Part shown: positions 4,224 through 53,664 of the stretch, piece after piece
Layout of the letters: each line of letters opens with the position of its first letter
Numbering within the stretch: the first letter of the stretch is position 1
IMG/VR virus record: IMGVR_UViG_2684622652_000002
Length of the DNA: 64,000 bases
Direction: 5' to 3' (one strand)
DNA from: an uncultured virus (IMG/VR IMGVR_UViG_2684622652_000002)
Lineage: Duplodnaviria; Heunggongvirae; Uroviricota; Caudoviricetes
Notes under the pieces: generated by a model
What the model was told of the DNA's origin: nothing
The model's database searches: none
What the model saw: only the letters and a program-made list of their open reading frames with translations
Made by a program: the position numbers and the translations under genes

Positions 4224-4663
4224 TCAGTTGGATTGTCGGCGCTATCGCACTGGCTATTGCTGACCGCTTTCTGCTGAAGCGTAGCGATATTTCAGAAATC
4301 CACTTAGGTGAGGCCGAGTTCCTGGGCGGTTTTGTCCGCGTACCTATCACCTATAAGAGTCGTTTCCCGTTTTTACGGGGGGCAACGATTCGATACTGGA
4401 TGAGTGATGCGCGTAAGCCTACAACCGTCGTAGAAGGCGATCAACGTAACTTATCTTATGCAAAGAGAGGCGAGAACTGTGAATGGCTATTCATTCCTAC
4501 CGAGTATATGGGGGGAGGGAAGCGTTTATGGCTGTTTACTGCCAACGTTACACATGGTGACTCATTTGTGAATCCGTTGTACCGAATTTTTCCAATATCG
4601 AAGCAGGTTCGGAGAAGCTACTGTTTGGATCTATCACAGGAAGTGAATGATGACCGGAAATAA
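4220..4663 (+). CDS. lydB: Antiholin LydB
   Basis: 147 aa; lydA-lydB-hdf synteny. Confidence 0.82.
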   Translation: MISWIVGAIALAIADRFLLKRSDISEIHLGEAEFLGGFVRVPITYKSRFPFLRGATIRYWMSDARKPTTVVEGDQRNLSYAKRGENCEWLFIPTEYMGGGKRLWLFTANVTHGDSFVNPLYRIFPISKQVRRSYCLDLSQEVNDDRK

Positions 4664-5252: not shown

Positions 5253-5253
5253 T

Positions 5254-7203
5254 ATGGATTTTAATCTTCACAAGGCAGTGACTATTAAACCGGGATTAGA
5301 TGTTCTTCCCGCGCCTATCACAGATGAAGAATACCGGGATCTTATGGCGGGGGAAAATCGCTATTTGATGACGGAAGCGAACTCGCTGGATGAGTTGGAG
5401 GCAACATTCTTCTATGATGCACCGGTTCACTGGCAGGCGGGTGAGTTGCTGGAAGCGATTACTTCTACCCGGCTGCAATTGAGCCGGACAATGCGTGCCT
5501 TTATCCGTACGCTGAACCAAAAATTAAAAGGCACAGGCATTACTGCTGGTAGTGATAAAACTGGTGATGTTGCACAAAGTGGCACGCGGGAGATTGGCGG
5601 TGCCGAGGTTGGCCGGGCGCGGAATGTAAATGGTCTACCGGTTCTACCGGCGCTGATTCCCCTTAGCGATGGGCAGACGATCAGCATTCTGTTTCACAGT
5701 CCTACCGCTGAAAAGAGAATCACGAACAGCGATACGCTGATTGCTTTTCAGTTCCTGCTGAATAAAAAAGACGTCACCCATACTGTAGCGCCGATGAGCG
5801 GACGAGATATGACGCTGGCGCAGGTGACTATGAAGCTGGCGAACCTGGCAGAAAAAAATACTGCTAAATTCCAGCGCGCGCAGAAGAAGAAAAAAGCCCT
5901 CACTGACGAGATTAATCAGCTTCAGGCAGATAGTGATCAGAAAGAAGATGCACTTAGCGACCTGGCAGACCAGGCCGCCACTGTTCAAAGTCAGAGTGCA
6001 GATCTGGAACAGCAGGTAAGCGTTATAGCCGCGCAGGCAGACCAGCTCGATGAGGAGAATGAGCGCCTTCAGGCAGAAATTGATGAACTTAACCGAACCG
6101 GCGGGCGTAGTGATGCGGCCACTGTTGCGGTTTCTGGTGGACAGGCGCGCGCGCTGACTGACCGCCTCGCCAATATTAAAAATCGTATGCACATTGATGG
6201 TCATGTGACGCTAAGTAATGGCGCAGAAATGCGACAGGGTATTGTTGATGGGGAGGGCTATATCCAGCTAACTGCCCCGGACGGTAGCCGTTACCAGATC
6301 CAGGCAGAGTCAATACAGGGTGTACACCTTGAAGCGGCCATAGGAAAACTGTTCAAGGCCTATAAAGCTGGTAAGGCTGAACAATATCTGGTTGCGGCGG
6401 AACCAGAACCCGCACCGGCACCAGACCCCGCGCCCGAACCGGTCCCTGAGCCGATACCGGAACCTGTTCCCGCTCCTGAAGCAGAACTTACCGCCGGTAA
6501 ATATCGTTATGCGCTTCAAATGCGCCCGGCTGGAGTGGGGGCTGTGCCGGCTGATAATGCCGGTATTCTGCCGCGCCCTGACTCCGATGACCCGTACTAC
6601 GATTACGCCCGTCACGGCATCATCACCTACAATGAGCCGCTGTCAGACGAGCAGATGCGCAACTTCGATCTGAAGCTGCTGCCGAGGGAAGAGTCCTTTG
6701 ACTTCCTCGCTAAGACGCTTGCCAGTGGTCCGTTTGGCAAATATGCCCGGCAATATCTTGAGATGGCTACCAGCGCGCCGAAAGACTTCCAGTCAACGCT
6801 GAAGATGAATTTCCAGAAGACCTTCCCTAACATCGCTTATCCGCTGGGTGACGGCACTGAAAAACTGGTGAAAAGCATGATTGTTGCACTTCAGCAGGAA
6901 GTCGCTGAAAGTAAGCCAGCACCAGATCCGCAGCCTGAACCGGCACCGGAACCTACACCAGAACCGGAAATTAGCGAAGCGGATAAAGCTGCCAACCAGG
7001 CAATCGACTATCTGAACAGTATTAACAGTATGCAGAGCAGCGATATGCTGGAAATTCGTAACGCACGTAGTAGCGTACGTGAGGCGATCGCCGCACTTCA
7101 GGCCGCAGGCCGCTTTGATGAAAACGAAGAGCTGGTGAACGCTGCCGCGCGTCATCTGGCCGATCTGCTGGTAGCAATCCAGAAACAGGGGGTAAACGCA
7201 TGA
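5254..7203 (+). CDS. darA: Defence-against-restriction protein DarA
   Basis: 649 aa; GQTISILFHSPT motif, coiled coil, Pro/Glu-rich linkers; synteny. Confidence 0.9.
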   Translation: MDFNLHKAVTIKPGLDVLPAPITDEEYRDLMAGENRYLMTEANSLDELEATFFYDAPVHWQAGELLEAITSTRLQLSRTMRAFIRTLNQKLKGTGITAGSDKTGDVAQSGTREIGGAEVGRARNVNGLPVLPALIPLSDGQTISILFHSPTAEKRITNSDTLIAFQFLLNKKDVTHTVAPMSGRDMTLAQVTMKLANLAEKNTAKFQRAQKKKKALTDEINQLQADSDQKEDALSDLADQAATVQSQSADLEQQVSVIAAQADQLDEENERLQAEIDELNRTGGRSDAATVAVSGGQARALTDRLANIKNRMHIDGHVTLSNGAEMRQGIVDGEGYIQLTAPDGSRYQIQAESIQGVHLEAAIGKLFKAYKAGKAEQYLVAAEPEPAPAPDPAPEPVPEPIPEPVPAPEAELTAGKYRYALQMRPAGVGAVPADNAGILPRPDSDDPYYDYARHGIITYNEPLSDEQMRNFDLKLLPREESFDFLAKTLASGPFGKYARQYLEMATSAPKDFQSTLKMNFQKTFPNIAYPLGDGTEKLVKSMIVALQQEVAESKPAPDPQPEPAPEPTPEPEISEADKAANQAIDYLNSINSMQSSDMLEIRNARSSVREAIAALQAAGRFDENEELVNAAARHLADLLVAIQKQGVNA

Positions 7204-7559
7204 AACTCTCCGCACTGGAATTGATGGACCTGAGCGATAAGCTTGATGAGTTAATGTCAAAGGCATCCGGCGCTACCGGGCTGGATCTCCTGGATATCAG
7301 CGACGAAATTGATCAGGTAATGCAACAGATGGGATACGGCGCAGGGGCTGACACTAAACCGGAAGACCCGAAGCCGTCCGACAACGTGCCGCAACTGGTT
7401 GCCGATTTTCTGGCGGATAAATTCCTGAAGCAAAGCCCGGATGCCTTTATCAGCACGCTCCAGGATCTTAGCCAGTACGTTGATGTTTATATTGACCTGG
7501 GCCAGGTAAAGGAACACACGGCGTCATGGATTGATGCCAACGTAAAAGAGGCAGCATAA
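7200..7559 (+). CDS. ddrA: DdrA
   Basis: 119-aa acidic protein directly after darA. Confidence 0.82.
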   Translation: MKLSALELMDLSDKLDELMSKASGATGLDLLDISDEIDQVMQQMGYGAGADTKPEDPKPSDNVPQLVADFLADKFLKQSPDAFISTLQDLSQYVDVYIDLGQVKEHTASWIDANVKEAA

Positions 7560-7571
7560 GGCGACACAGGG

Positions 7572-10568: not shown

Positions 10569-10848
10569 GATCACGTCTCCCGATGGTAGGGTGGGGGTAG
10601 TAGAGTTTGATGATGGTCCGATCCTCAACGTGACCGGTGATGTATCGTTGGCGGAGATAGCCGAGGCAATCCGCGTTTTACGGCCTAATTCAGCCACTGG
10701 AACTGTAAACATGGTGGGCGCTGACGCATGTTTTGTTCTACGAAGCGCGGAGATCGCTGGCTGGTTGGTGGATTGGCCAGAAATTGAAGGAGATGATGAC
10801 GACGATTCGTATGACAGCGGCATGGATGAAGATCTGATTGTAAATTGA
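10555..10848 (+). CDS. hxr: Hxr-like acidic protein, last gene of the dar operon
   Basis: ATG at 10555 after AAGGAG; position after ddrB. Confidence 0.7.
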   Translation: METIKITSPDGRVGVVEFDDGPILNVTGDVSLAEIAEAIRVLRPNSATGTVNMVGADACFVLRSAEIAGWLVDWPEIEGDDDDDSYDSGMDEDLIVN

Positions 10849-10855
10849 CGAGAAC

Positions 10856-10879
10856 GCCCGCAGATTGCGGGCTTTTTTT
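10856..10879 (+). terminator. Intrinsic terminator
   Basis: GCCCGC-AGATT-GCGGGC followed by T7. Confidence 0.85.
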
Positions 10880-11414
10880 AAAGACAGTAGACGGTGTGGC
10901 GAGGGTAGGGCAGGCCAATCGGCGCGAACGGTATATCGTCGTCGAAGTCCATTGGTGGTTCACTGTGTTGACCAGGGCCGCCGCCGCTGAACTGCTGAGT
11001 CCCTTGCGGCTGTTGAGGTTGCCCCCAACCGGTTTGTTGTGGATCTCCTGAAGACGAACCATCCCGGCGCCCGCCAAGCATTTGCATCGTGCCTTTCTGC
11101 CCTACGACAATCTCCGTGGTATATCTGTCCTGGCCGGACTGATCTTTCCATTTACGGGTCCGTAGCTGGCCCTCGATGTAAACCTGAGAACCCTTACGCA
11201 GATATTCACCGGCCACTTCCGCCAGTTTGCCAAACAGCACAATGCGGTGCCATTCCGCTTTCTCTTTTATTTCCCCGGTTTGCTTGTCACGCCAGCTCTC
11301 GTTAGTTGCTAACTGAAGACTGGTGACAGCCTTATTATCAGGTAGATAGCGAACTTCAGGGTCATGTCCCAAAGCGCCAACCAGGATTACTTTATTTACG
11401 CCACGTTGAGCCAC
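10878..11414 (-). CDS. ssb: Single-stranded DNA-binding protein
   Basis: [14 protein letters not shown]-fold start; DFDDDIPF tip followed by 15 extra residues; probable GTG start. Confidence 0.95.
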
Positions 11415-11433
11415 ATTCACTTCCTTGAAAACA

Positions 11434-11450
11434 ATAAATATTAGAGCAAT
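11434..11450 (-). promoter_or_regulatory. C1 operator upstream of ssb
   Basis: Minus strand ATTGCTCTAATATTTAT versus P1 consensus ATTGCTCTAATAAATTT. Confidence 0.8.
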
Positions 11451-11477
11451 AAATTAACCCCTCAAGAGCGGCCTAAC

Positions 11478-11496
11478 AAGTGATTTGGAGTACGAT
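11478..11496 (+). promoter_or_regulatory. Lpa-type late promoter for lyz
   Basis: AAGTGATTT-N4-TACGAT; same architecture at 16811, 42028 and 55226. Confidence 0.65.
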
Positions 11497-11590
11497 TTTG
11501 CTTCAGCCAGGAAGAACGCGCCCGTGGGCGCGTGTACGTGCATGAGTGGTCGAGGGGTAATCGTAAAACAGATCACTTGTGAGGCTAAGG

Positions 11591-12145
11591 ATGAAGAAAA
11601 AAACAGCGGTCGGTGGCGGTGCTATTTGCGCAGTTGGAATGATGATTAGCATCGTCCTGAGTCATGGTACTGTGCGAACTAATGAGGCTGGCCTTGAGTT
11701 AATCGGGAATGCCGAGCAGTGCCGTCGTGATCCGTACAAATGTCCCGCAGATAAGTGGACCGACGGGATAGGGAACACCCATAACGTTAAGCCCGGAGTA
11801 CGAAAAACTGATCAACAAATTGCGGCGGATTGGGAAAAAAATATTCTGATAGCTGAACGTTGTATTAATCAGAATTTTCGCGGGAAGGACATGCCGGATA
11901 ACACGTTCAGTGCGATGACCAGTGCCGCGTTTAACATGGGATGTGGAAGTCTACAGACGTATTACAGCAAGGCGAAGAAACGTCGCGTAGAGACCTCTAT
12001 CCATAAATGGGCGCAGGCTGGGAATTGGGTGAACATGTGTAATCATCTTCCGGACTTTGTTAATGGGGGTGGTGTTCGTCTACGTGGTCTTGAGATCCGC
12101 CGGGAGAAAGAACGCCAGCTTTGCCTGACGGGTCTTGTTAAATGA
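11591..12145 (+). CDS. lyz: SAR endolysin (lysozyme)
   Basis: N-terminal SAR segment; GLELIGNAEQCRRDPYKCPADKWTDGIG catalytic region as in P1 Lyz. Confidence 0.93.
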   Translation: MKKKTAVGGGAICAVGMMISIVLSHGTVRTNEAGLELIGNAEQCRRDPYKCPADKWTDGIGNTHNVKPGVRKTDQQIAADWEKNILIAERCINQNFRGKDMPDNTFSAMTSAAFNMGCGSLQTYYSKAKKRRVETSIHKWAQAGNWVNMCNHLPDFVNGGGVRLRGLEIRREKERQLCLTGLVK

Positions 12146-12396
12146 ATAAGCGTCGGCAACTCTTCCGTCTTTCGACGATGAAGTTATCACTGGCAGCAAT
12201 CGTTTTTGATTCCATTTTTATGGCGGTGTCGGTGTGGAATGAAACATGGCCACTGGACCCATTAATATACGCGGGGATACGGTTGTGCCTGACATTCATG
12301 AGCATGGGCGCCCGGCTGTTACAGCAGGGGGAAACCACATCTGATTGCCCCCGCCGAGCAATGCGTAAATTCTTCAGCAGGAGGGAGTCGGCTTAA
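12142..12396 (+). CDS. lydD: Holin LydD
   Basis: 84 aa with two hydrophobic segments; follows lyz. Confidence 0.72.
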   Translation: MNKRRQLFRLSTMKLSLAAIVFDSIFMAVSVWNETWPLDPLIYAGIRLCLTFMSMGARLLQQGETTSDCPRRAMRKFFSRRESA

Positions 12397-12904
12397 CAGT
12401 ATTCACCTGACCTTTCGTTTTTCTACGGAAGGTCTTTTTCTCTTTCCAGAAGCCGTGACGCGGTGCTGTGCGCTTCCGTTCGGCCATTTTCTCCACCAGC
12501 TTCTGATAAGCATATTCACGTTCCTGGTCTGTGATAAGCGCCACCGGCTTACCGTCAAGCCCGTAACGGTGCTTCATAAACAGCACCCGGCGTTGGTAAT
12601 TTTCAGTGTTTAATGCTGAAGATAGGGCGCTTGCAATGCGCTTAGGGTTGACTTCAATACCGCGTGCGCGCAGATCATTCAGCATTGCTTCACGAATGCC
12701 AATGGCGACCGGTAGTATTCGCCCGTTGCGATACAAATCAGGCCAGTATTTTACCAGTCTACGCTGGTGCTTACGGATGTCCTTCAGAGCCAGCTTTTTA
12801 ACCTTTGGCGCTGGCTTTTTATGTGATTTTTTCTTTGGCCGTACAAGGCCGTTTTCACCAGGGACCAGAATTTTTTTGAGCGTACGTGATTTATTTTCCA
12901 TCAT
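12374..12904 (-). CDS. ProQ/FinO-domain RNA chaperone
   Basis: WPDLY...PVAIGI...Y...RYGLDGKPVALITDQEREYA matches the FinO/ProQ core; basic N- and C-terminal tails. Confidence 0.85.
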   Translation of the reverse strand: MMENKSRTLKKILVPGENGLVRPKKKSHKKPAPKVKKLALKDIRKHQRRLVKYWPDLYRNGRILPVAIGIREAMLNDLRARGIEVNPKRIASALSSALNTENYQRRVLFMKHRYGLDGKPVALITDQEREYAYQKLVEKMAERKRTAPRHGFWKEKKTFRRKTKGQVNTVKPTPSC

Positions 12905-13908
12905 TTACCTGCCTTCTTTGCCTGGGCATTATTCAGTAGAGCCCGGAGATTTGCGAGATGTTCTGAGATTTTTTGTGGTGATGACTGGCGGGCTATGCGA
13001 GCACGCTCCTCCCAGTCCTGATCTGCCTGACGATTAGCTTCCTCGTAGCGAGCGTGATTAAACGCTTCCTGCATTGTGTTGCTGGCAGTGTTGTCTGTTC
13101 TTTTTTTATACTTTTCTGTCTTGTTTTGTTCTAACGTAGATTTTTTTATATTAGTTTCTTTGCGTGACGATTTTCTTTGTGACATGGCTGTAAATAAATC
13201 ACGAATATCCTGCATGAAACGGACCTTTCCGTTTTTGTGGATTATGGCAGATTTTTCTACTGTACCTGCTGCATTTCCCTCGATTGTGTCGCCCGCAGAA
13301 TATTTATTTATTTTATTGATAACTACTTTATTGTGGTCAGTTTTGCCACCCTCCTGGGTTGTATTTTGCCACCCCTGTTTAACGGCACTTTTAGGCGGGT
13401 ATCCCTTTGAAAATAGCTTATTCTTCAAGGAGGTAAATCCTGACTTTGCACGAAACACCAGGCGCTCAAGTAGTGTATTAAAACGGGTGCGGGCGGACTT
13501 AAAATCCAGTTGGCGTCTGCTCTTTAGCTTATCGGCATAACGACGGAAGCCCTTTGCTATCCGGATGAAAAGAGGCGAATACGTATACAAACATGGTTTT
13601 TGTTTGCCTGTTTCTTTATCAATCACAAACTCCTTGCGGAGTATCCCCATTTCGGTAAGTTTTTGAAGGTGCCGGCGGGCTGTATCCCTGCTGATACCGC
13701 ACTCATCAGCGATATTCTGAAGAGATTTGAAGATGCAAAGTTTGTCGCTGGCCGTGGCATGTTCGCTGGCGATCATCAGAGTGTATTTCACTGCTGGACG
13801 GAGAAGCTTTGGAGATATCTCCTGGATGATGCTTTTCAAACCAAATTGATTTAACGAACCATCGCTGTTAAATGAAAAGCTTTTGTTTTTTATAGCGGAA
13901 TGTGTCAT
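12901..13908 (-). CDS. Winged-HTH replication initiator-like protein (RepL-like)
   Basis: IFKSLQNIADECGISRDTARRHLQKLTEMGIL...LYTYSPLF resembles the N-terminal HTH of P1 RepL and phage initiators. Confidence 0.65.
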   Translation of the reverse strand: MTHSAIKNKSFSFNSDGSLNQFGLKSIIQEISPKLLRPAVKYTLMIASEHATASDKLCIFKSLQNIADECGISRDTARRHLQKLTEMGILRKEFVIDKETGKQKPCLYTYSPLFIRIAKGFRRYADKLKSRRQLDFKSARTRFNTLLERLVFRAKSGFTSLKNKLFSKGYPPKSAVKQGWQNTTQEGGKTDHNKVVINKINKYSAGDTIEGNAAGTVEKSAIIHKNGKVRFMQDIRDLFTAMSQRKSSRKETNIKKSTLEQNKTEKYKKRTDNTASNTMQEAFNHARYEEANRQADQDWEERARIARQSSPQKISEHLANLRALLNNAQAKKAGK

Positions 13909-13946
13909 GATATCTCCGTATACAGTTATACCTTTTAGTGATGAAC

Positions 13947-13973
13947 ACCCCGGCTTGCACCGGGGTTTTTTTT
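13947..13973. terminator. GC-rich hairpin with T-tract between pro and the RepL-like gene
   Basis: ACCCCGG-CTTGCA-CCGGGGT followed by a T run. Confidence 0.6.
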
Positions 13974-14035
13974 GCCTGATGTTTTGATCTGGCGGATCGG
14001 ATTAAACAATAACGCACGGCAGATCGCAACACGTT

Positions 14036-14052
14036 ATTGTTCTAATAATTTA
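14036..14052 (+). promoter_or_regulatory. C1 operator upstream of the RepL-like/ProQ operon
   Basis: ATTGTTCTAATAATTTA. Confidence 0.7.
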
Positions 14053-15066
14053 TTTGAAGGGGTTTACAGGCTTGTCGAAAGTGATCATGCTTGTTGGCGT
14101 CTCACTTCTGGGCGACTTGCGCGCCGGTTCTTCCACCGGAGGGGTAAGAGGTAGATTGCGAGCACCAACTTTGAGCAAGGACTCAAAGAGAGAGGCAACA
14201 ACTTTTGCATCGTCAGGATCTTTTAATTTAAAGGCTTCTTTCTGACTACCAGTGACAAAAATTGGCAGGTTATCCAGTTCGTTTTGAATGGCCGCCAGCA
14301 CATCTTCACGCACACCTGCGGCGCTTTCCAGTAAGGAAATGCGCGCTTCAGCGTCGGCCAGCAGCATCTTCGCTTCAAGATTGCGCCCCTGGCTTTCCAG
14401 CAGGGCAGTTTCTAATTCAGCGTTACGTTCGGTAGCCTCCAGCATCAACTCCAGTTCCGCCAGCTTTCCGTAGTGCGTAATTACAGCCTGTACAGACTCC
14501 TCAGAGTAACCATGTTGTGCCAGTGATTCTGCTAACAGTGATTGCGCATCAGCACTTTCGAACATACCGGCGCTGGCCGGGTGATCCAGGCTGACGTAAT
14601 TCGGATTGGTAACGTAATCCACGCCGTGGAAGCTGGTGGTCACTGCAATATTACCGGCCTGGCGACCGCCGGTAGCCCAGCTCCAGCCACCGGCGCGGCT
14701 TTCGATCATTGCAGCGACGATTTTCCCTGGTTCGGTGTTCAGAATTTCCTGTGTATGGGTAACAACACCGTTATCATCCACTGAGATATCAACGGTACGG
14801 CAGGCTGGCACGTTATCGATGACCACAGGGCGGCCTTCAACCATAATCACACTGGTTTCAGGTAGCTCCAGCTTGCCGGTCATTTCCCGGCGCCCGTGGC
14901 CGTAATAACCGTACAGCTCACCGAGACGCAGGCCTTCCTGTGTCTCCTTGCTTTCCAGCATGGCTTTCACGGCACCTAACACATACTTGCGTCCGTTTTG
15001 ACGACCGGTACGCGCGTTTTTATACAGACAGAAACGGTCAGTGACCGTCTTCAGAACGTCAGTCAT
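14050..15066 (-). CDS. pro: Prohead/head-processing protease
   Basis: [12 protein letters not shown] start, [15 protein letters not shown]; follows prt as in P1. Confidence 0.88.
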
Positions 15067-16768
15067 TGTTTTGTCCCTCTTTAAAGACTGATTCAAGGAT
15101 TTGCGCCAGTTCCTCCGGCGTTGATTTGAGTATGGAATCCATCATGGAGCTGTCTTCGTCTTTGGCTTTTAATTCAGCCACCAGCTCATTAGAGATGTTT
15201 TCATCTATCTCCAGAATATTGCAGAAAAGATAACGTTTAAACGCCTCCGAATTAGCCAGCGTCGTATTGTTACTGACGGCATCCAGGATCTGCGTAATCA
15301 AAGTGGCATAGTTAGCCTGAGAGTCACGGTTATCGTTATGCTCTTGCTGCAATGCAGTGTTTACGGAGTGGAATTCTATTTTGTAAGGGCGATCGCCTTC
15401 CGGATAGACCTTGCCGTATTTGTACGCCAGGTGGATATCAATGGCGCGCTGGATAAATTCCTCCACTCCCTGTTGAATCCATGCCGCCCGCATTGCAGCC
15501 TGTATGGCCGTGCGCAGGAAGCCGCCTTCACCCAGCCCGCCGGACATCTGATCTGCCCAGCCTAACAGCGTATAATCCAGCCCCAGCGCGGCGGCCAGCT
15601 GACGCATATACGTCAGTATGTCCTCAATGCCGTTGATATCTGCCTGAATGGTTTGCGTGTCGATCGTCATCTGCCCTTTACCGTCGCCCATGATTGGCAG
15701 AAGGGTATTGGTGACGGTAGGCGTATTGTTTGCTCCTTTTGCGCGTTTTTCCATAAGGTCGGCTGCGCGCTTCAGGGTCTGAGATATTGTACGGGAATAG
15801 TCAGCAGCTTTTACCGGGTCGAGGCTGTTCATCGCCAGACCAATAATGCGATCAATTTTTGACGCATTGAAACGGCTGGCTTTCAGCGATCGGATCGCTG
15901 AGAGCAGGTTAATATACGGCTCGTAAGCATATTCAAGCAGGCTGGTGCCATAGTTTTGAGTTTCTACCGGCATCAGTGATTCAGGATCATCAAGCAGGCT
16001 GTAAGGCCGGGTGCCATGATATACCGGAATCTGGTTCCCTTTGGGACGCCAGTACGGAATTTTCATAGGGATGAGTGACCACGGATCAGCGAATACAAGT
16101 TTACCAGTGGAGTCCTTCAGGTAATCGCCGCTGAAGCCTGCCAGATTGCCGGCAAGTTCAAACTCTTTCACGAAGTAGGGCAGTGAGTAATAAGAACACT
16201 CAAATGACTTAATGCCTATACGTTCTTCCGCGTGCGGACGGATGTAGGCGACACCAAATACGGACATGATAAACGCCCAGCCTGCCACCTCTTTGTTGAT
16301 GGTCTTGCCGATATCATTCATCAACTCATCGCATAGTGCCTGTGAAGCTTTGTAATCCGCTTCATTCCCGTTGTTCACCGGTGAAATAGAGAATGTCTGC
16401 CCCGTCTTTTTGTCGTAGGAAAGCGCGTGTGTGATGTGGATGTTCAGAGCGGTTGCTATTGTGCTGTAAACAGACATTTCTTCCAGCAACGGATATCGCT
16501 GTAACCGATCTTCCGGCAATTTGACTTCGTCAAAAATAAATCGGCTTCCATCCACCATGCATGACGATTCGTCATTGTCATTGCCTGTGTTATTGCTAAG
16601 AAAGCCCGCTAATGCGGCAGGTGCTGAGGCGCGGGAAAAAAGATACCCGCTACCACCCTGAACAGCCAGTGCCGCCAACAGGACATTGTTGCTGTCGCCC
16701 TTCGCGTCCTTAAAGACGTCTGTCAACGCCTTCCTGACAGATGACAGAGTAATTTTGTTCTCAGCCAA
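15059..16768 (-). CDS. prt: Portal protein
   Basis: 569 aa, divergent from darB; P1 synteny. Confidence 0.88.
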
Positions 16769-16810
16769 GATAGTACCTTCATTAGAATAATTGCGTATGT
16801 ATTTTGCGCA

Positions 16811-16829
16811 AATGTAACACTGGTCACTT
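16811..16829 (-). promoter_or_regulatory. Lpa-type late promoter between divergent prt and darB
   Basis: Minus strand AAGTGACCA-N4-TACATT. Confidence 0.6.
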
Positions 16830-16843
16830 GTGAAGGATCACTA

Positions 16844-19800
16844 ATGGCAGACATATCTGGTGGAGTTTTCTCTTGTAAAAGTATTAGCGAGATTGTTCGA
16901 TTTATTAGAGCAATTTCAATGCGTCGGCAACCCGTATCTTTCGGGGTAAATAAGGTTGAGGGAAAGAGTTTCGACAGGCTTCGCAAAGAGGCGAATGCAA
17001 AAGCGGTTGATTTGCTTAACAGCCTGACAGATGGGGCAGAATTAACGGACGAACAGCGGCAGACACTCGCTGGTTATACCGGGGAGGGGGGAATTGGCGG
17101 TTCTGTTTCCGAATACTATACGCCGCAGCCGGTGGCAGAGGGTGTATGGGAAATAATGAAACTCTACGGTGCCGACGTGGGAAATACACTGGAACCGTCT
17201 GCTGGCACTGGCGTATTCAATGAAACGAAACCGGTCGGTACGGTAATGACAGCAACGGAGATTAGCACCGTTTCCGGCAGGATAAATAAGCTTTTGCACC
17301 CGGAAGATAGCGTCCAGATTTCTCCCTTTGAGCAGTTGGCAGTCAGTACCCCGAATGACACCTTCGATCACGTCGTTGGCAATGTACCATTCGGCGGGCG
17401 CGACAATACGCGCAACATCGATAAACCGTACGCTGAAGAAACCGACATGGGGTCGTACTTCATGTTGCGCATGCTGGACAAGATTAAACCCGGTGGCTTT
17501 ATGTGCGTAATTGTACCGCCATCTATCGTTTCCGGCACCAACATGAAGCGGCTCCGCCTGCGCCTTTCCCGAAAAGCTGAGTTTTTAGGTGCGCACCGAC
17601 TCCCGACCGGCACCTTTGATGCCAACGGCACCAGCACCGTCGTTGATGTCGTTCTGATGCGCAAACACCCGAAAGAGATGGCCGATAGAGTTGCACAGGC
17701 GGAAGAAAGCACGCTGGAAGCCGCGAATGTCCTTTGGCCAACGTTTATCACTGGCAAATGGTTTGAGCGCGACGGTCGCCGGTTCGTCCACGGTACGCAG
17801 GAAAAAGGCTTTCAGGGACGCATTGAAGTACGCGCTGATGGGCAGATCGATAATCTGGCGCTCAAGGCGAAGCTAATTCATCGTTTCGACAGCCGTATCG
17901 ACTGGTCAATGTTGGATATTGATGAACCATCACCAACTGCTGATGTGATTGATGAAGGTGAGATGCGCCTGATTAATGGCGTGTGGCATAAATTCGCGGG
18001 CGGTCGCTGGATTGAGGCCGACGCGGGTAAAGAGTTGGTAATCGACAACGAACGCTTTGGCGCGGATAGCTGGGAAGCACTTCAGCGTAACCTTTCTACT
18101 GCCGAAGGCCGCCTGGGGATGACCTTTGACCAGATGGCAAATGTACGGCAGCAGTACGCCAGCTCGCTAAGCGATGACCAGGTTCAGATGGTGGACTGGA
18201 TTGGCAGCCAGCCTGAGAAATACCGCACCCGCCTCTATCGTGGGGCTATGCTCGGTCGCATGCTGATTGAATATCAGGACATGAAGGCTGCCGGGCATAA
18301 CGAAGATGATATTGAACAGCGCCGGTTGTCACTGGCGGCCAAAGTTCAGGCTGAGATTGACCGCTTTGGTAATCCGGGGCGCGGCCCGATCGCAAAACTT
18401 TCCGGTGCTGGCGCCCGTGCCTGGTTCGCGTTCCGTGGGGCAATTAAGCTTGATGGTTCTATTTCCGATGAACTGACCGGAAAACTGGTGACACATGATG
18501 CCAGTGCAAGCTACGACTCCACCAGCTATCAGGACACATTACGTCACCTCTACAGTGATCTCACGCGCGATCCCGTTCAACTTGAGGATTTCCGCCAGGC
18601 ATTCACAGGAGATATTCCCGCCAGTGATGATGAATTGCTTGATCTGCTGGCTAACACGCCGGGCATCGCCGTTTCACCATATGGCGGCATTGTGCCGTTC
18701 GCCCGCGCCACCAGTGGCGACATAAATGAGATCATTGCACCTAAGCAGGCCTTTCTCGCCCAACTGCCGGATGGCGCGGTAAGAAATAACGTTCTCAACC
18801 AACTGGCGGCTATTGAGGAGAAACGCCTTAAAACCCCGGCGGAAAATATTCGTTTTAAACTCAACAGTCGCTGGTTTGACCGCTCGGTCATACTGGAGTT
18901 TTTGCAGGAGAATGGTTATCCGGATCTGCGCTATGTCCAGTCTGTTCAGATGGAAGGCGACGAAATGGTGTCCGAAACGTATCACGGCGGAGACGGCCTC
19001 TTTGTTGGTCATCGTTATGGTGTGGTGCAGCGCAAGGACAAAGAAACCGGCGAGATCCGCTATGAGTGGGACAAAAAATCTGGCGATAACGCAACGGGAT
19101 TCCCGGCGCAGTTGGAGAAATACCTTAACGGTGCGCGCATAGGCGGGAAAGATAGCGCGACTGCGAATGGTTATCGCGAGCAGATGGCGCTGCTGGAAGA
19201 ACAATTCAACAAGTGGATAAAAACCCATGACCGCTATGATGATCTGGTCGCCAAATACAACGACATCTTCAACAGCAATATTCCGTATGAGCATTCCGGA
19301 GATTCTTTAGGGCTAACCGGGATCAGCGGCAAGCGTCTGCCGTTTGATTACCAGAACAGCGAGGTCCGTCGTTTATCAGAAGATGGGCGTGGTATCCTGG
19401 GATTTGGGACCGGCTTAGGTAAAACCACAACTGGCCTGGCGCTGGAGGCATTCAACTTTGAGAACGGACGCTCTACGCGCACCGCGTACGTTGTGCCAAA
19501 ATCCGTGCTGGAAAACTGGTATTACGAGGCGAAGGACTTCCTGAGCGAGCAGGCCTTCAGTAATTACCTTTTTGTCGGTCTTGACGTGCTAATGGATGGT
19601 GATCAGATTCGCCAGGTCCCTGTACTCGATGAGAACGGTAAGCCGGTAATGAATGCCGACGGCACGCCAGTGATGCGCGACGGACTCAAGCTGGCAGATG
19701 AAGCGACCATAACGGCCCGCATGAACGCGATCCCGCACTCCAACTATCGTGCAGTAGTGTTTACCAAAGAACAGTACGCCCGCATCCCGCTACGCAATGA

Positions 19801-22800
19801 AACAGTGGACGAACACGCGCAGGATATGCTCATAGATTTCGTGGCCGCCGGTCGCGTGTCCAGCGCGATGGAGTCCGACTCCCACCGTAAAGAAGCGGCG
19901 CGCCGACGCGTGCTTTCCGAGTATTCAGATACCGGCACCGAGAAGGCCGAGAAATACCCGTATTTCGAAGATATGGGCTTTGACAGCGTGATCGCCGACG
20001 AGGGTCATAACTACCGCAACAGCTACAAAAATGGCCGGGAGGCCTCCCAACTGGCTTATCTTCCGACCAGTGCTGTAGCGCAGTCGGCTCGCGACATGGC
20101 GATCAAAAATGCCTATCTGATGAAGAAGAATGGCGGGCGCGGGCCGGTGATGTTGACGGCTACACCGATAGTTAACACTCCGATTGACGCCTACAACATG
20201 TTGTCTCACGTCCTGCCAAAAGAGTTTTGGCAGAAAATGGGCATCTTCGGGCCAGATGACTTTGTGAAATTCTTCGGCAAAACGCGCCTGGAGACGGTCC
20301 AGAAAATCAGCGGCGAAGTCGAAGAAAAAATGGCGCTGGTGGGCTTTGAAAACCTCGATGCGCTGCGCGGCATTTTCCACCGTTGGACGACGCTGAAGAC
20401 AGCGGAAGACGTGAAGGACACAGTAGAGATCCCTGAACTGGATGAACGCCAGCAGGATGCGCCACTTACCGATGAGCAACTGGCGGCTTATGAGGAACTG
20501 CGCAAACAAGCCGAGGCGGCAGCGAAAGCCAACAATGGAATGGCCACCATTGAGCAGGAGGACGGGACCACTACCGAGGAGAAAGCACGCCCGATCTTCT
20601 CCATCATCCGTGACATGGACCGTGTTTGTACGGATATGGATCTGTATCACCACAGAATTACGTATCGTTTCCTGCCGGAACACGCCGATGCGGTACAACA
20701 ACTGGCGGACAGCCTGCCGAAACAGGCCACCAGCGAGGATGACGACAGCGATGAGGCAGTGACACAGCAGGTGCAATATTCGCTGATCGACAAAGGCGAA
20801 TTTATCCAACTCCAGGTGCCGGAGGCGTTCGAACCCGAAGTGAATAAACGCCTGGCAAAGTTCGGTATTGACGAGCGTACCGTCACGCATCCGGTTACGC
20901 CGAAGTACGCGAAGCTAATCGCTACACTGAAGGAGTTCTTCCCGCAAGGTAAGCAGATCATCTTTACCGACGAGAAAACGCAGCACCAGAAGCTGAAGCG
21001 CATTATATGTAACGCACTGAATATCGACCCGTCACAAGTTGGTATTCTCAACGCCCAGACCGTTGCCGACGCTGGTAAATCTGGCAAGAAACTGAAGGCT
21101 GTTAAGCCACCGAAAGACCTTCCGGATGAACCTACCGAAGCGCAACTGACAAAATACAATGAACAGATGGCCCTGTATGATGCCTATATTGCGCAGCAAA
21201 ACGAGATGTCGTTAAGCGGGCTGGAGAAAATCGCCGCCGATTTCCAGGAAGGCCGTACCCCGATCATCATCTGCAACAAAAAAGCCGAGGTAGGTATTAA
21301 CCTGCATCGCGGCACAACCGACATCCATCATCTTACGTTGCCGTGGACTCCGGCGAGTATCGCGCAGCGTAACGGTCGCGGCGCCCGCGTCGGCTCCAAC
21401 CGCGCCAGCGTGCGTGTTCACTACTACTGCGGTAAAGGTTCTTTCGACGAGTACCGCCTGAAGACGCTGAAGCGCAAGGCGGGCTGGATCTCCGATATTC
21501 TCCGTTCCGATAAATCAGAAATGGAGAATGCCGACGCCAACGACATGATAGAAATGCAGATGTACACCGCCAAAGATGACGGCGAACGTTTGGCGATGAT
21601 GCAGGTACAGATGGATAAGGCTAAGGCAGCGCAACTGGCGCGCCAGAAAGAGCAGGCCGGTGTTGACCTGCAAAACTATGTCAAGGCGCAGCACGCCGCC
21701 GGCGAGGATGTGGAGGCGCTGGCCGCGCAGCTGGAAACCAGCAAAAACGAGCTGGAAGAGGTGGTAGCAGAGGTGGCCCGGTATCGTCAGTTGGTGCTGG
21801 CCAAAGCGGCAGAAAACGAAGAGTGGAAAGCGCGCTGGGGCAGTGTTTACAGCAGCGACCGTCTCCAACTCTCTCAGTATCGCAACTCGCTTAAAGCGGC
21901 GATTCGCCGTAAAGCCGACCTTACCAGCGCGATCAGCCAGCGCGAGAAACTGCTGACGCGCACCAAAAAGGCGGCGACGGATATCAAACGTCTGCGTCCG
22001 CTGGTGGAAGATGCGATGAGCAAAGGCCTGCTGAGTGTCGATCCTGATCTCATTAACCACGCCAAAGATTTTCTGGTGATTAACGACCAGTCCTGGCGCG
22101 TGGGGCAGTATTACGAGAACAACGGCGATATCGTTCGCATCAAGGCGTTGGACTTTGACAGCCAGCGTGCTGACGTCGAGGTGATTTTCTCCAGCAAAGG
22201 CACCCGTTCAAGCTCCTGGCCGGTGCGGTTGCTTCAACAGCAGGTTGACGTAACCCCGGATGAAGCGGCGGTTATGGGTAAAATCAGCGGTGGCGTGTCC
22301 ATCGCGGGGATTAACGATCTCATCAGTCGCGACGACTTCTACCGTTTCCAGCAGCGCGGTATGCTGAAAATCACCGACTCCTATGCGATGCAGAACACCG
22401 AGCATGGCTACTCGATGGAGTTTGTCAGCAGCTCCGATACTGTGCAGAACGCTGTTTATCCGGACCGTACTGATGGCGCGCTGAAGTCGGCGATCGCGAA
22501 GTGGGCGCTGGGCTACCTTGCCGCTGGTCAGGGGTACAAAATCAGCAGTGCCGAGTCGTTTTTAACCGAGCTGTTTGGCAGTAATTACCGTGACGTGATC
22601 TCTTCCTACGGTGACGCACTTTCCCCTGAAGATATTCAGGAGCGTATCGTGGCCGAGATCGCCAAACTTCCGGCGAAATCCCCGGATGGTTCAACGCGTA
22701 ACGGTGATTCTGAGGTGGAGGTGGCCAACGCCATCTTTAACAGCTATCCGTTCCGCGCGTCCGCTTATGAGCTGGGTACGTCAGAGTTTGGCGCAATCAG

Positions 22801-23608
22801 TGTCTACAGCAACAAAGCGGAGATTAAGGCCGCGATGGATGCAACTAACGCGCGCATTGCTGCCGAGCGGCAGGCGAATCTGGATCATGCCGTTGAGGCG
22901 CTGGCGCAATCGTGGGTGACGGCAATCAAGGGAGCGGTAGCAACTGGAAAAATTACCCCTACAATTGCTGATGTTGTTAATGATGGTGCTAAATTCATGG
23001 ATGCGTATCGCAATGGCTCAATGCCGATGCCAACTGCATACGGCATGACTACCAATCATCCGACGTATAATCTGGTTTCCATGTTCGCCGATCTGGTGAT
23101 TCTGGATCTGGTGGAACTGAGCGAGGTAACGCCGACGCTGTTGAGCGCCCGTAAAAACTATCTCGACGTGCTGATTCGCGTGGCAGACGGGCTGCGGGCA
23201 CGCACAGACGAGCAGAAGGCGGCGGACGCTGACCGCATCAATCTGGCGCTGGGTAATATCACGGAAGAGGAGGTCGCCGCGCGTAACGCGCAGCAGGACG
23301 AGATAGCCACGGTGCAGGGCGACGCCACCAGTACCGCCCAGGCGCTGGGGCTCAACTACCGCGTATCGACCGCCGATCTCAAAATGATGTACGCGCCGAA
23401 GTTCGCCGCTGGCGAGGTGTTTGGACTACAGGAGGCATCTGGTCAGAAAGGCGTATTGTTCCGCGCCAAAGACGAGTTGAAAGATAAGTTCAAAGCGCGC
23501 TGGCTGCCAGCGAAAGCCAAGAATAGCGACTTCCCCGGCAACTGGTGGATCATCGAAACTAAACACAACGCAGCGGACGTGCTGGCCGTTATCCAACAAT
23601 ACGCATAA
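16844..23608 (+). CDS. darB: DarB: N6-methyltransferase plus SNF2-like helicase antirestriction protein
   Basis: 2254 aa; LEPSAGTG and GNVPF MTase motifs; GTGLGKT, DEGH and QRNGRGAR helicase motifs. Confidence 0.95.
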   Translation: MADISGGVFSCKSISEIVRFIRAISMRRQPVSFGVNKVEGKSFDRLRKEANAKAVDLLNSLTDGAELTDEQRQTLAGYTGEGGIGGSVSEYYTPQPVAEGVWEIMKLYGADVGNTLEPSAGTGVFNETKPVGTVMTATEISTVSGRINKLLHPEDSVQISPFEQLAVSTPNDTFDHVVGNVPFGGRDNTRNIDKPYAEETDMGSYFMLRMLDKIKPGGFMCVIVPPSIVSGTNMKRLRLRLSRKAEFLGAHRLPTGTFDANGTSTVVDVVLMRKHPKEMADRVAQAEESTLEAANVLWPTFITGKWFERDGRRFVHGTQEKGFQGRIEVRADGQIDNLALKAKLIHRFDSRIDWSMLDIDEPSPTADVIDEGEMRLINGVWHKFAGGRWIEADAGKELVIDNERFGADSWEALQRNLSTAEGRLGMTFDQMANVRQQYASSLSDDQVQMVDWIGSQPEKYRTRLYRGAMLGRMLIEYQDMKAAGHNEDDIEQRRLSLAAKVQAEIDRFGNPGRGPIAKLSGAGARAWFAFRGAIKLDGSISDELTGKLVTHDASASYDSTSYQDTLRHLYSDLTRDPVQLEDFRQAFTGDIPASDDELLDLLANTPGIAVSPYGGIVPFARATSGDINEIIAPKQAFLAQLPDGAVRNNVLNQLAAIEEKRLKTPAENIRFKLNSRWFDRSVILEFLQENGYPDLRYVQSVQMEGDEMVSETYHGGDGLFVGHRYGVVQRKDKETGEIRYEWDKKSGDNATGFPAQLEKYLNGARIGGKDSATANGYREQMALLEEQFNKWIKTHDRYDDLVAKYNDIFNSNIPYEHSGDSLGLTGISGKRLPFDYQNSEVRRLSEDGRGILGFGTGLGKTTTGLALEAFNFENGRSTRTAYVVPKSVLENWYYEAKDFLSEQAFSNYLFVGLDVLMDGDQIRQVPVLDENGKPVMNADGTPVMRDGLKLADEATITARMNAIPHSNYRAVVFTKEQYARIPLRNETVDEHAQDMLIDFVAAGRVSSAMESDSHRKEAARRRVLSEYSDTGTEKAEKYPYFEDMGFDSVIADEGHNYRNSYKNGREASQLAYLPTSAVAQSARDMAIKNAYLMKKNGGRGPVMLTATPIVNTPIDAYNMLSHVLPKEFWQKMGIFGPDDFVKFFGKTRLETVQKISGEVEEKMALVGFENLDALRGIFHRWTTLKTAEDVKDTVEIPELDERQQDAPLTDEQLAAYEELRKQAEAAAKANNGMATIEQEDGTTTEEKARPIFSIIRDMDRVCTDMDLYHHRITYRFLPEHADAVQQLADSLPKQATSEDDDSDEAVTQQVQYSLIDKGEFIQLQVPEAFEPEVNKRLAKFGIDERTVTHPVTPKYAKLIATLKEFFPQGKQIIFTDEKTQHQKLKRIICNALNIDPSQVGILNAQTVADAGKSGKKLKAVKPPKDLPDEPTEAQLTKYNEQMALYDAYIAQQNEMSLSGLEKIAADFQEGRTPIIICNKKAEVGINLHRGTTDIHHLTLPWTPASIAQRNGRGARVGSNRASVRVHYYCGKGSFDEYRLKTLKRKAGWISDILRSDKSEMENADANDMIEMQMYTAKDDGERLAMMQVQMDKAKAAQLARQKEQAGVDLQNYVKAQHAAGEDVEALAAQLETSKNELEEVVAEVARYRQLVLAKAAENEEWKARWGSVYSSDRLQLSQYRNSLKAAIRRKADLTSAISQREKLLTRTKKAATDIKRLRPLVEDAMSKGLLSVDPDLINHAKDFLVINDQSWRVGQYYENNGDIVRIKALDFDSQRADVEVIFSSKGTRSSSWPVRLLQQQVDVTPDEAAVMGKISGGVSIAGINDLISRDDFYRFQQRGMLKITDSYAMQNTEHGYSMEFVSSSDTVQNAVYPDRTDGALKSAIAKWALGYLAAGQGYKISSAESFLTELFGSNYRDVISSYGDALSPEDIQERIVAEIAKLPAKSPDGSTRNGDSEVEVANAIFNSYPFRASAYELGTSEFGAISVYSNKAEIKAAMDATNARIAAERQANLDHAVEALAQSWVTAIKGAVATGKITPTIADVVNDGAKFMDAYRNGSMPMPTAYGMTTNHPTYNLVSMFADLVILDLVELSEVTPTLLSARKNYLDVLIRVADGLRARTDEQKAADADRINLALGNITEEEVAARNAQQDEIATVQGDATSTAQALGLNYRVSTADLKMMYAPKFAAGEVFGLQEASGQKGVLFRAKDELKDKFKARWLPAKAKNSDFPGNWWIIETKHNAADVLAVIQQYA
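16898..16914 (-). promoter_or_regulatory. C1 operator-like site inside the darB 5' end
   Basis: Minus strand ATTGCTCTAATAAATCG (15/17 consensus). Confidence 0.65.
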
Positions 23609-37319: not shown

Positions 37320-37416
37320 TGCGATAGCTTTTAACATATCTCATGTGAAGATTATACGTTTGAATGTCATTCTGCACGTAGCTATCTGCCCATTACCAAC
37401 ACCTGAAGGATGACAT

Positions 37417-37692
37417 ATGTCAATTCAAACAACCCAGATAAAACTACTGGCGTCAGCGCTGGGTCTTAACAGAGCTGATATCGCAGAAATTATTGCGCTT
37501 GGCGGCGTCACTGTATCTAAAAGTCGCGTTGATAGCTGGTTGCGCAGCAGTTCTGCGACAAAAAATGCAACCGGGAATTCCGACCTACAGGGGCAACGAA
37601 TTAACCGGGCCGGCACGATAAAACCGGAAGAATTTCACGCTTTTTGTGTTGGACTGAAGCCGTGGCTTGACAGAGTGTCGCCAACGGAATAA
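37417..37692 (+). CDS. Small HTH-like protein (DUF1456/YehS-like) directly upstream of the CRISPR mini-array
   Basis: AAGGA RBS; LGLNRADIAEIIALGGVTVSKSRVDSWLR...FHAFCVGL pattern. Confidence 0.65.
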   Translation: MSIQTTQIKLLASALGLNRADIAEIIALGGVTVSKSRVDSWLRSSSATKNATGNSDLQGQRINRAGTIKPEEFHAFCVGLKPWLDRVSPTE

Positions 37693-37699
37693 TGTGTCC

Positions 37700-37840
37700 T
37701 TGTTCCCCACATAACGTGGGGATAACCCAGTAGTTATAGAAAATTGTTTTCTTACTGTGGTTTTGTTCCCCGCTTATGCGGGGATAAACCGGCTATATGG
37801 CCGCCTCATACGAAGTTCCCCATTTTATGGGGTAAGGTAA
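37700..37840 (+). CRISPR. Cas-less type I-E-like CRISPR mini-array (three degenerate repeats, two spacers)
   Basis: R1 TTGTTCCCCACATAACGTGGGGATAACCCA (37700-37729); R2 TTGTTCCCCGCTTATGCGGGGATAAACCG (37763-37791, 24/29 to the enterobacterial I-E repeat GTGTTCCCCGCGCCAGCGGGGATAAACCG); R3 AAGTTCCCCATTTTATGGGG (from 37813); spacers 33 and 21 nt. Confidence 0.85.
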
Positions 37841-37867
37841 AACAAGCGCTCTTCGGGGCGCTTGTTT
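37840..37867. terminator. Hairpin terminator closing the mini-array, likely bidirectional
   Basis: AAACAAGCGCTC-TTCG-GGGCGCTTGTTT. Confidence 0.8.
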
Positions 37868-37924
37868 GCTTATGGAGAGGTACAACATCATTCATTTTCC
37901 TCGGTTTTAAAACCGTATTCCCCT

Positions 37925-46200: not shown

Positions 46201-46326
46201 ATTGTGGCGCCGGGATTTGAACCCGGATAACGTCTAACCAGCCGCATGAGATAATCAGGTAACGATCCCTGAATTCCCCACCTCCCCAGACAAGGGGCGC
46301 TCTCCCCAATTGAGCTACACCACAAC
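46201..46326 (-). ncRNA. tRNA-like RNA with an expanded variable region; no canonical anticodon arm, no CCA
   Basis: Acceptor TGTGGTG/CGCCACA; D arm GCTC-AATTGGGGA-GAGC; T arm CCGGG-TTCAAAT-CCCGG; about 57 nt inserted. Confidence 0.7.
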
Positions 46327-52897: not shown

Positions 52898-53149
52898 ATG
52901 GATCTGACGAAACAACAAGCACAGGTACTAAGTCGCCTGGCGAACGGTGAACAGGTGTTTAAAGGGGAAGACGATGTATATCGCTGGAGCGGAGACGCTG
53001 GTGGACAAGTCTGCACTGCGCCAGTGAAAGCACTGTTGAAACTGAACCTGGTACGCATTGCGAAGGTAAAAGGTGGATCTGTTCTACGTTGCGCCGTTAC
53101 CGCTGCGGGCCGGGATTACCTGAAGAATTCATGGAATAACCAAAAATGA
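52898..53149 (+). CDS. Small winged-helix-like hypothetical protein
   Basis: GAGGT RBS; LTKQQAQVL...VTAAGRDYL. Confidence 0.65.
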   Translation: MDLTKQQAQVLSRLANGEQVFKGEDDVYRWSGDAGGQVCTAPVKALLKLNLVRIAKVKGGSVLRCAVTAAGRDYLKNSWNNQK

Positions 53150-53664
53150 GCTTTGATATTAAAGAATTAACTGAAATAGATCTGGAATCAGCCGATTTTT
53201 CTGATGCGCTTATGTGGCTGAAGGAAGGTAAGCGTGTTGCGCGTAAAGGCTGGAATGGCAAGGGGCAGTTTTGCTGGATGGTGCCAGAAGGTCAGTATCC
53301 GGCGCGAACGGAAGCTATCAAAGGACATTTCCCCGGCGATATGGTGCCGTATAGCGCTTACTTTGCCCTGAAGAATGCTCAGGACGCTGTGGTGCCGTGG
53401 CAGCCGTCTGTGGGCGACCTACTGGCAACGGATTGGAAGGTATATGATGTGCCGGTGTCAGACATTCCCCCCTACCAACTGCGCGTACGGGAAGAACTGG
53501 CGCAGGTGAGCGATCGTCTGAATAAACTCAATGCGTTTATCGACGGTGGCAGCGAGACATTTGCCAGCCTGCCTTGTATTGAGCAGTCCCGTCTGCGCGA
53601 GCAAGCCACGTATATGGCTGATTATCAGGACGTGCTGATCAGGCGTGTGATTGCATTTTCATGA
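53146..53664 (+). CDS. DUF2829/Tad2-like domain fused to a helical C-terminal domain
   Basis: DFSDALMWLKEGKRVARKGWNGKGQF...VPWQPSVGDLLATDW. Confidence 0.82.
   Translation: MSFDIKELTEIDLESADFSDALMWLKEGKRVARKGWNGKGQFCWMVPEGQYPARTEAIKGHFPGDMVPYSAYFALKNAQDAVVPWQPSVGDLLATDWKVYDVPVSDIPPYQLRVREELAQVSDRLNKLNAFIDGGSETFASLPCIEQSRLREQATYMADYQDVLIRRVIAFS

Follow-up and report, generated by a model that had tools for sequence, protein, structure and literature searches.

Phages and plasmids have been reported to encode viral Cracrs, crRNA-like RNAs that copy the guides of host CreR or CreA (Liu et al., bioRxiv 10.1101/2024.10.29.618823). According to that preprint, Cracrs occupy host Cas proteins in competition with crRNAs and hold down the promoters of cas or toxin genes; they are recognised by at least nine PAM-proximal bases in common with a host CreR/CreA spacer together with partial pairing with the cas or creT promoter. 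Its type I-E case, the CracrIE array of the Salmonella enterica Se29 prophage, has a 24-nt first spacer (psiS1) and a 21-nt second spacer (psiS2) behind a typical 8-nt handle. A one-base deletion shrinks the loop of the third repeat (psiR3), so that the psiS2 RNA keeps a 40-nt 3' tail; because Cas6 processes psiR3 poorly, validation of the psiS2 unit was not possible. In E. coli equipped with a Salmonella Cascade, T7 regained infectivity when the array was present, but not once psiS1 had been mutated; part of the effect was ascribed to competition for Cas proteins. For the first unit, the preprint reports maturation that depends on Cas and activity as an anti-CRISPR, and the psiS1 unit lowered casA mRNA. 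For type I-F, the same preprint describes viral crRNA-like RNAs with shorter spacers than those of the host, which let the complex escape a co-encoded Acr protein.

Two further bodies of work bear on such elements. Host CreR is a degenerate mini-CRISPR in the type I-E loci of Salmonella and E. coli (bioRxiv 10.1101/2023.03.10.532045; PMC10120712). In E. coli, a spacer shortened by 12 nt to 20 nt was processed by Cas6e and gave a Cascade with fewer Cas7 subunits, with no interference against phage or transformation and weak plasmid loss (Kuznedelov et al. 2016, PMC5159557); according to the abstract of that paper, spacers longer than 20 nt still permit some interference.

The window analysed here is the whole 64,000-nt stretch of the uncultured virus record IMGVR_UViG_2684622652_000002. 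Its + strand carries a three-repeat, two-spacer type I-E-like mini-array at positions 37700-37840, without cas genes (Table 1).

Table 1. Positions of the mini-array components and of the neighbouring elements in the window.
Feature	Position	Strand	Description
DUF1456-like gene	37417..37692	+	91 aa; predicted HTH fold; directly upstream of the array
Promoter-like site	37667..37695	+	TTGACA (37667-37672), 17-nt spacer, TAATGT (37690-37695); read by eye
psiR1 (R1)	37700..37729	+	degenerate I-E repeat; stem CCCCAC/GTGGGG; 5-nt loop; handle ATAACCCA (6/8)
psiS1 (S1)	37730..37762	+	spacer-like, AT-rich, 33 nt
psiR2 (R2)	37763..37791	+	near-canonical I-E repeat; stem CCCCGC/GCGGGG; loop TTAT; perfect handle ATAAACCG
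psiS2 (S2)	37792..37812	+	spacer-like, 21 nt, sequence GCTATATGGCCGCCTCATACG
psiR3 (R3)	37813..37840	+	terminal repeat; stem CCCCAT/ATGGGG; 3-nt loop TTT; TAAGGTAA where the handle is expected
Intrinsic-terminator-like hairpin	37841..37872	+	arms AAACAAGCGC / GCGCTTGTTT, U-rich tail; directly 3' of R3

A preliminary description of this DNA had singled out S2 as a 21-nt spacer between the best repeat and a repeat that retains the hairpin and lacks the handle, about 12 nt shorter than the first spacer. Both statements were borne out. With its 5-nt loop, R1 is 30 nt long and S1 accordingly 33 nt, so that the difference is exactly 12 nt. Allowing up to three mismatches, S2 occurs only once in the window (one match; none in 100 shuffles). 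A 50-nt query of R2 and S2 had matches in 4036 of 5426 complete E. coli genomes; among the matches listed, 27 of 30 fell under annotated CRISPR features and the other three under none. These matches identify R2 as a true homologue of type I-E repeats. The locus is nevertheless not a canonical type I-E array, as its three repeats differ in stem, loop (5, 4 and 3 nt) and handle, its spacers measure 33 and 21 nt, and a scan of the window found no cas genes. An imperfect 14-nt palindrome, CGGCTATATGGCCG, extends over window positions 37790-37803, which comprise the last two handle bases and the first 12 bases of S2. It forms a small hairpin in the centroid structure, and natural variants disrupt the pairing; it could be an operator or mere chance.

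A Pfam scan of the 61 window ORFs found P1-type LydB, the N- and C-terminal DarA domains, a DdrB-like ParB domain and a 2254-aa methylase-helicase. Further P1-type markers were the late promoter activator (Lpa), a Cin-like resolvase, a Ref-like nuclease and a DnaB-like helicase (Ban). The closest records were Salmonella plasmids, with pSTM_Phi showing 97% identity over 99% of a 701-nt query. Together with the P1-type markers, this identifies the carrier as a P1-like phage-plasmid, most likely of Salmonella. An SSU5-like element was also considered and rejected, since the Pfam markers are P1-like. P1-like phage-plasmids pass between Salmonella and other enterobacteria, often with accessory genes. 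The array lies in an accessory region without cas genes: the Pfam scan found no Cas family among the 61 ORFs, and no Cse1 was found on four related plasmids. The scan did find a Tad2-like anti-defence domain. Window positions 4647-23608 and 53146-53664 hold a P1-typical anti-defence set (DarA-like proteins, a DdrB-like protein and the 2254-aa methylase-helicase) plus this Tad2-like protein, which would make the array one of several counter-defence functions of the element. Elsewhere in the window, an Rfam tRNA match on the - strand (46202-46324, 41 bits) is 123 nt long where the model has 71 positions; the excess points to an insertion or an intron-like segment.

Compared with the published CracrIE array, the locus shows several likenesses. 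Both are sets of type I-E repeat-like units without cas genes in Salmonella mobile elements, and in both a 21-nt second spacer follows a typical handle and the third repeat has a loop that is one base smaller. The two differ in the first spacer (33 nt and AT-rich here, 24 nt in CracrIE), in the loops of R1 and R2, and in the carrier, which is a P1-like phage-plasmid here and an integrated prophage there. As in viral Cracrs generally, the window array is carried by a virus or plasmid and is not part of a CRISPR-Cas locus, and its repeat units, with hairpin and 5' handle, are homologous to host CRISPR repeats. Like host CreR, whose guide binds a promoter without cleavage, its first repeat keeps the handle and its last repeat the hairpin. 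CreR, however, lies inside the cas locus, between cas3 and casA, and serves the host, whereas the window array is on a phage-plasmid without cas genes, between the DUF1456-like gene and the terminator-like hairpin. In E. coli K-12, the spacer region between cas3 and casA contains a degenerate repeat with a perfect ATAAACCG handle, antisense and just after cas3 (L024:2490-2520). The first unit of another array (L027) has 18 bases in common with this repeat, a stretch that runs from the end of the stem through the handle to the fifth base of the spacer; no spacer similarity to K-12 CreR was seen when the spacers of the array family were compared with it.

By description, then, the window array is a sister of the published CracrIE array, and pSTM_Phi and other relatives may already stand in Table S2 of the preprint. 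It belongs to a Cracr-type kind that has already been described (2024-2026); the first unit, the carrier type and the linked gene are new. We think it probable that the array encodes viral crRNA-like anti-CRISPR RNA, a Cracr array whose RNA occupies host Cascade and holds down the cas promoter. The class proposed for S2 at the outset, a non-cleaving regulatory guide or an anti-CRISPR RNA, is the best-supported reading and fits viral Cracr arrays, but no target for it was found in E. coli cas regions (see below).

The complete series of R1, S1, R2, S2, R3 and terminator recurs in plasmids pSTM_Phi, pSAN1-1735 and pCFSAN030538, with an S2 of 21 nt in each. S2 carries single changes at position 13 in pSAN1-1735 and at position 9 in pCFSAN030538, and S1 is kept in all four plasmid copies, with one change in pSAN1-1735. 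Repeat changes among these copies affect loop bases of R1 and R2, one R1 5'-flank base, one R1 handle base and bases just past the R3 stem. No stem changes occur among the four P1-like plasmid copies, and their R2 differences are confined to the loop. Scanning IMG/VR with the R3 hairpin returned five loci: the pSAN1-1735 copy, the array L027, a 41-kb provirus (L037, identical to L030 and L032), and two that we read as chance matches inside coding sequence. The provirus holds psiR1, a 24-nt spacer, psiR2, a 21-nt spacer, R3 and the terminator. Its S2 differs from that of the window by one base, its R3 hairpin is identical and its terminator is the same. L037 thus matches every stated feature of CracrIE (24-nt psiS1, 21-nt psiS2 and 3-nt-loop psiR3), a comparison made by verbal description.

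A recent deletion would have left relatives with a full-length spacer in place of S2. None was found: S2 is 21 nt long in six of six aligned copies, which include pSTM_Phi, pSAN1-1735, pCFSAN030538, the IMG/VR prophage L037 and a fragment in CP054717. Positions 14-21 are invariant in this alignment, and variation is found at positions 1, 5, 9 and 13. A DNA contig of a public run held a further S2 variant with changes at positions 5, 6 and 11. The variable sites therefore include seed positions 5 and 9, while the PAM-distal positions 14-21 are fixed, which is not the pattern expected of a purely seed-driven mimic. In the IncF colicin plasmid CP054717 only S2, R3 and the terminator are present (L004:1501-1579) and R2 is absent; an IS200/IS605 transposase gene follows some 150 bp further on. 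In the R3 stem of the fragment an A has become G, with pairing retained as G-U.

Neither array type was present in 50,697 phage records, where only flanks or terminator were common, and the nearest virus record is without the array region. In P22-like Salmonella phages and plasmid p21-SA00706-0, the same flanks, with the upstream phrog_2100 ORF and the terminator, enclose neither the DUF1456-like ORF nor the array. The gene and array are therefore a module inserted between a gene and its terminator. When window segments 37372-37416 and 37820-37875 were compared with two such empty sites (L005 and L007), part of the 3' half of R3 resembled the empty site, so the right-hand insertion junction may lie inside R3.

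A query of IMG/VR with the aligned sequences of the small protein encoded upstream yielded 14 loci. Type I-E-like hairpins start roughly 10-30 nt past the gene stop in all 13 testable viral loci; the fourteenth (L035) was left out as its contig edge comes right after the gene stop. Elsewhere in these loci of about 2.6 kb no such hairpin was found, except for one unlike, opposite-strand hairpin in L045. In the Erwinia amylovora plasmid pEU30, an N-terminally longer homologue is followed by two such hairpins. In L027 the order is reversed, and a different, four-repeat array lies upstream of the homologous DUF1456-like ORF.

Across 32 distinct repeat units, the stem positions pair in 99.5% of 187 cells, against 36-65% of cells in slid controls. 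Four of the six stem pairs have changes on both sides (17 cells), and none of 500 shuffles reached the covariation score. The repeat hairpins are thus more than chance. Handle conservation depends on position: of the eight positions of ATAAACCG, internal repeats keep 6.7 on average (n = 23) and terminal repeats 2.8 (n = 11), as expected if only the 5' handles of the guides are needed. The preliminary description had taken R3 for a repeat that lost its handle. The handle is indeed absent, but that description had missed that the 3-nt-loop hairpin of R3 appears to be a conserved variant rather than a product of decay. The same hairpin recurs as an internal repeat in the unrelated array L027. In three other loci (L040:1542-1575, L045:1606-1640 and L046:1589-1625) the last repeat hairpin, CCCCGC-TTCG-GCGGGG, runs into a T-run, and there the terminal repeat seems to serve as transcription terminator too.

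The 17 spacers of eight array types measure 20, 21 (five times), 24, 27, 30 (three times), 32, 33 (twice), 42, 47 and 52 nt, which makes 20-21 nt the commonest length in the family (6/17). In contrast to the synthetic truncation of the engineered short-spacer Cascade (PMC5159557), the short length in the window array is natural and conserved. The weak interference of 20-nt spacers in that system favours binding without efficient destruction for a guide of 21 nt. As the same paper's abstract grants some interference to spacers above 20 nt, shortness alone does not make a guide non-cleaving; the background on short guides in the preliminary description is otherwise roughly right. Another array with short spacers, L036 (1473-1700), has five repeats and spacers of 21, 21, 20 and 21 nt, of which the first two are variants of each other. 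From their sequences, they look like guides to allelic targets, and they fit the statement in the Cracr preprint that Cracrs in arrays are directed at different alleles of a single system.

As to expression, the promoter-like site overlaps the last codons of the 91-aa ORF, and its TAATGT contains the TAA stop. Diverged relatives have a comparable layout: TTGAAT-17-TAAGTT in L037, TTGACA-17-TAGCGT in L036 and TTGATA-17-TAGCGT in L040. A consensus promoter scan did not call the site, whose -10 agrees at only three of six positions, and the conservation of the -35 may derive from the protein, since it overlaps conserved W-L-D codons. The hairpin behind R3 is stable in both the MFE and centroid folds, is invariant among the aligned array copies and is common to P22-like Salmonella phages without the array; it was not listed by a terminator scan, and calling it a terminator is our reading of the sequence. 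The 175-nt array stretch as a whole folds with z = -5.5, and none of 200 shuffles folded as well.

One RNA-seq study contained a 156-nt assembled contig that spans positions 37701-37854; it begins in the first bases of R1, reaches the terminator loop and covers the array alone. It starts 6 nt past the -10-like hexamer and is consistent with a separate small transcript, although a single contig in one study cannot fix the ends, strand or origin of the RNA, nor exclude DNA carry-over. Other contigs of the same study cover the gene region downstream of the array. In RNA runs X1-X3 no contig lay over the DUF1456-like gene, and such a contig gap is not proof of absence. Coverage by the array contig ends 42 nt after S2, close to the 40-nt psiS2 tail reported in the preprint, a coincidence worth noting and not proof.

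These observations also bear on whether the locus could be what is left of a captured CRISPR array, now functionless and in decay. Degenerate repeats, an R3 without handle and the truncated CP054717 copy beside a transposase gene are what such a remnant might look like. Against it, stem changes are compensatory, handles are retained by position, and the array is conserved in four plasmids and a prophage. It also always follows a conserved gene at a fixed place (13 of 13 loci) and has promoter-like and terminator elements and an RNA-library contig. We therefore consider decay very improbable.

What the spacers might recognise was addressed by a series of searches. Among 50,697 phage and 72,556 plasmid records no protospacer of S1 was found, the arrays themselves being the only good matches, and the exact S2 20-mer had no match in IMG/VR. 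With every sixth base left free (18 fixed bases), S2 had five matches in species-representative genomes, all non-enteric and below the roughly 17 expected by chance; ten metagenome matches were counted only. No partial match to S1 or S2 was found within the window itself. On four related plasmids, the S2 seed pattern was not clearly above a reversed control, with more matches in two (W01 and W02; 5 vs 4 and 10 vs 3) and fewer in the other two (W03 and W04). In the 5,426 E. coli genomes, queries of handle+S2+R3, R2+S2 and R1+S1 matched CRISPR repeats only, and a query with the L032 array was swamped by CRISPR arrays. The preliminary description had proposed a search for PAM-adjacent partial matches. 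Run with all spacers of the family on the cas regions of E. coli K-12 and O157, which are not those of the carrier's likely host Salmonella, it gave no AAG-flanked seed above shuffles, that is, chance level only. A tblastn search of plasmids with K-12 CasA found Vibrio and Photobacterium only, two class-level samples of about 400 genomes had no enteric I-E arrays, a third search yielded no dnaN of the E. coli kind, and a literature search with the S2 and psiS1 strings returned unrelated papers only.

That no full protospacer was found is easier to reconcile with regulation or a decoy than with interference, and it does not tell regulation and decoy apart. Interference would be expected of a hijacking mini-array, whose guides direct host Cascade-Cas3 against competing phages or plasmids. 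Virus-borne mini-arrays with such a role have been described (PMC10120712), and the 33-nt S1 is near-canonical in length. We nonetheless regard this explanation as improbable for the window array: besides the absence of an S1 protospacer from the phage and plasmid records and of S2 matches beyond chance from IMG/VR and the species-representative genomes, a 20-nt spacer barely interferes in E. coli (PMC5159557), and the repeats are unlike each other and the spacer lengths irregular, in contrast to arrays filled by Cas1-Cas2.

Under the Cracr reading that we favour, a transcript of about 170 nt would start near 37701 and end at the terminator at 37841-37872. Host Cas6e would cut at the base of the R1 and R2 hairpins, releasing two guide-like RNAs. 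The first would consist of the handle ATAACCCA and the 33-nt S1, and the second of the handle ATAAACCG, the 21-nt S2 and a tail formed by the poorly cleaved R3 hairpin. Both would load host Cascade in competition with host crRNAs, the short S2 guide giving a smaller Cascade with fewer Cas7 subunits. Partial PAM-proximal pairing would then park Cascade on the promoter of the cas operon, a site normally taken by host CreR. Parked in this way, Cascade would not lead to cutting by Cas3, and Cas production would fall. We infer the targets of S1 and S2, the processing in this element and the repression.

The same RNAs could act without any target. Racrs are repeat mimics of phages and plasmids without cas genes (PMC10651486), and in a decoy of this type the hairpins and handles would soak up Cas6e, Cas5 and Cas7 into useless subcomplexes, with the short S2 and the uncleavable R3 aiding the formation of aberrant complexes. 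This accords with the absence of S1 and S2 targets from the collections and E. coli cas regions searched, and with the variation at S2 seed positions. The 3-nt loop of R3 is conserved, and the Cracr preprint describes the small-loop psiR3 as poorly cut and ascribes part of the effect to competition for Cas proteins. A decoy does not readily account for the pattern of conservation: between the two array types, the upstream gene (59% identity), R1, S1 and R2 have diverged, while S2 (one change), R3 and the terminator are nearly unchanged. Neighbouring spacers of L036 are variants of one another, as expected of guides to allelic targets, and mutation of psiS1 abolished the effect of the published sister array (bioRxiv 10.1101/2024.10.29.618823). 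Racrs are described as solitary repeat units; the three units of the window array, with conserved spacer-like segments and handles, may speak against such a type. On balance, a decoy seems rather unlikely to us, yet a more serious candidate than hijacking.

If the Cracr reading is true, an RNA that turns host Cascade on its own cas promoter would help phage-plasmids to establish themselves in hosts with CRISPR. What lacks validation in the preprint is precisely the psiS2 unit of the published array, and the conservation of this unit across diverged carriers argues that it works.

The preliminary description had also overlooked the gene linked to the array. This gene, which precedes the array, belongs to a small protein family, with 63 representatives at E ≤ 0.001 among 1.84 billion sequences, most of them of 80-100 aa. 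Its 91-aa product matched Pfam DUF1456 with an E-value of 1.6e-5 and 25.5 bits, under the 27-bit cut-off; RefSeq names relatives 'DUF1456 family protein', and the L032 homologue had no Pfam match. The proteins upstream of the window-type and L037-type arrays are 59% identical. In an AlphaFold (AF2) model from eight sequences (pLDDT 80), the N-terminal part consists of three helices and the C-terminal part of one long helix; the model also contains a hairpin of low confidence. Foldseek found no match for this model in the PDB at E ≤ 0.001, a profile search against PDB sequences gave only hits of E ≥ 0.3, and PHROGs has no family for the protein. The best rows from VIA-align were XRE-type HTH proteins, namely NE0471 (Z 6.7) and Aca10 (Z 6.7, rmsd 2.5 over 56 residues), followed by controller proteins and Aca1 (Z 5.2). 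Structural matches at Z < 8 to a predicted model would indicate a common HTH arrangement and no more.

On the basis of this model, the protein may reasonably be proposed to regulate the array in an Aca-like way. A wider and more tentative proposal, which we hold as possible and not as likely, is a two-part counter-defence module. Here the array would have a dedicated partner in the DUF1456-like HTH protein of about 92 aa, which would either control the array promoter in the manner of an Aca or work alongside the RNA as a novel protein inhibitor, and the 3-nt-loop terminal hairpin would be a deliberate, cleavage-resistant trap for Cas6e and not a defect. Our literature search found no paper linking DUF1456 and anti-CRISPR, and 'DUF' is absent from the main text of the Cracr preprint, its supplements lying outside this search. 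We found no mention of the link between gene and array in print, and it is new here. The gene offers a handle for finding further arrays and is a possible first protein partner of type I-E RNA anti-CRISPRs. In one provirus (L047:1183-1308), a stop after 42 codons cuts the DUF1456-like gene, and the array behind it is intact.
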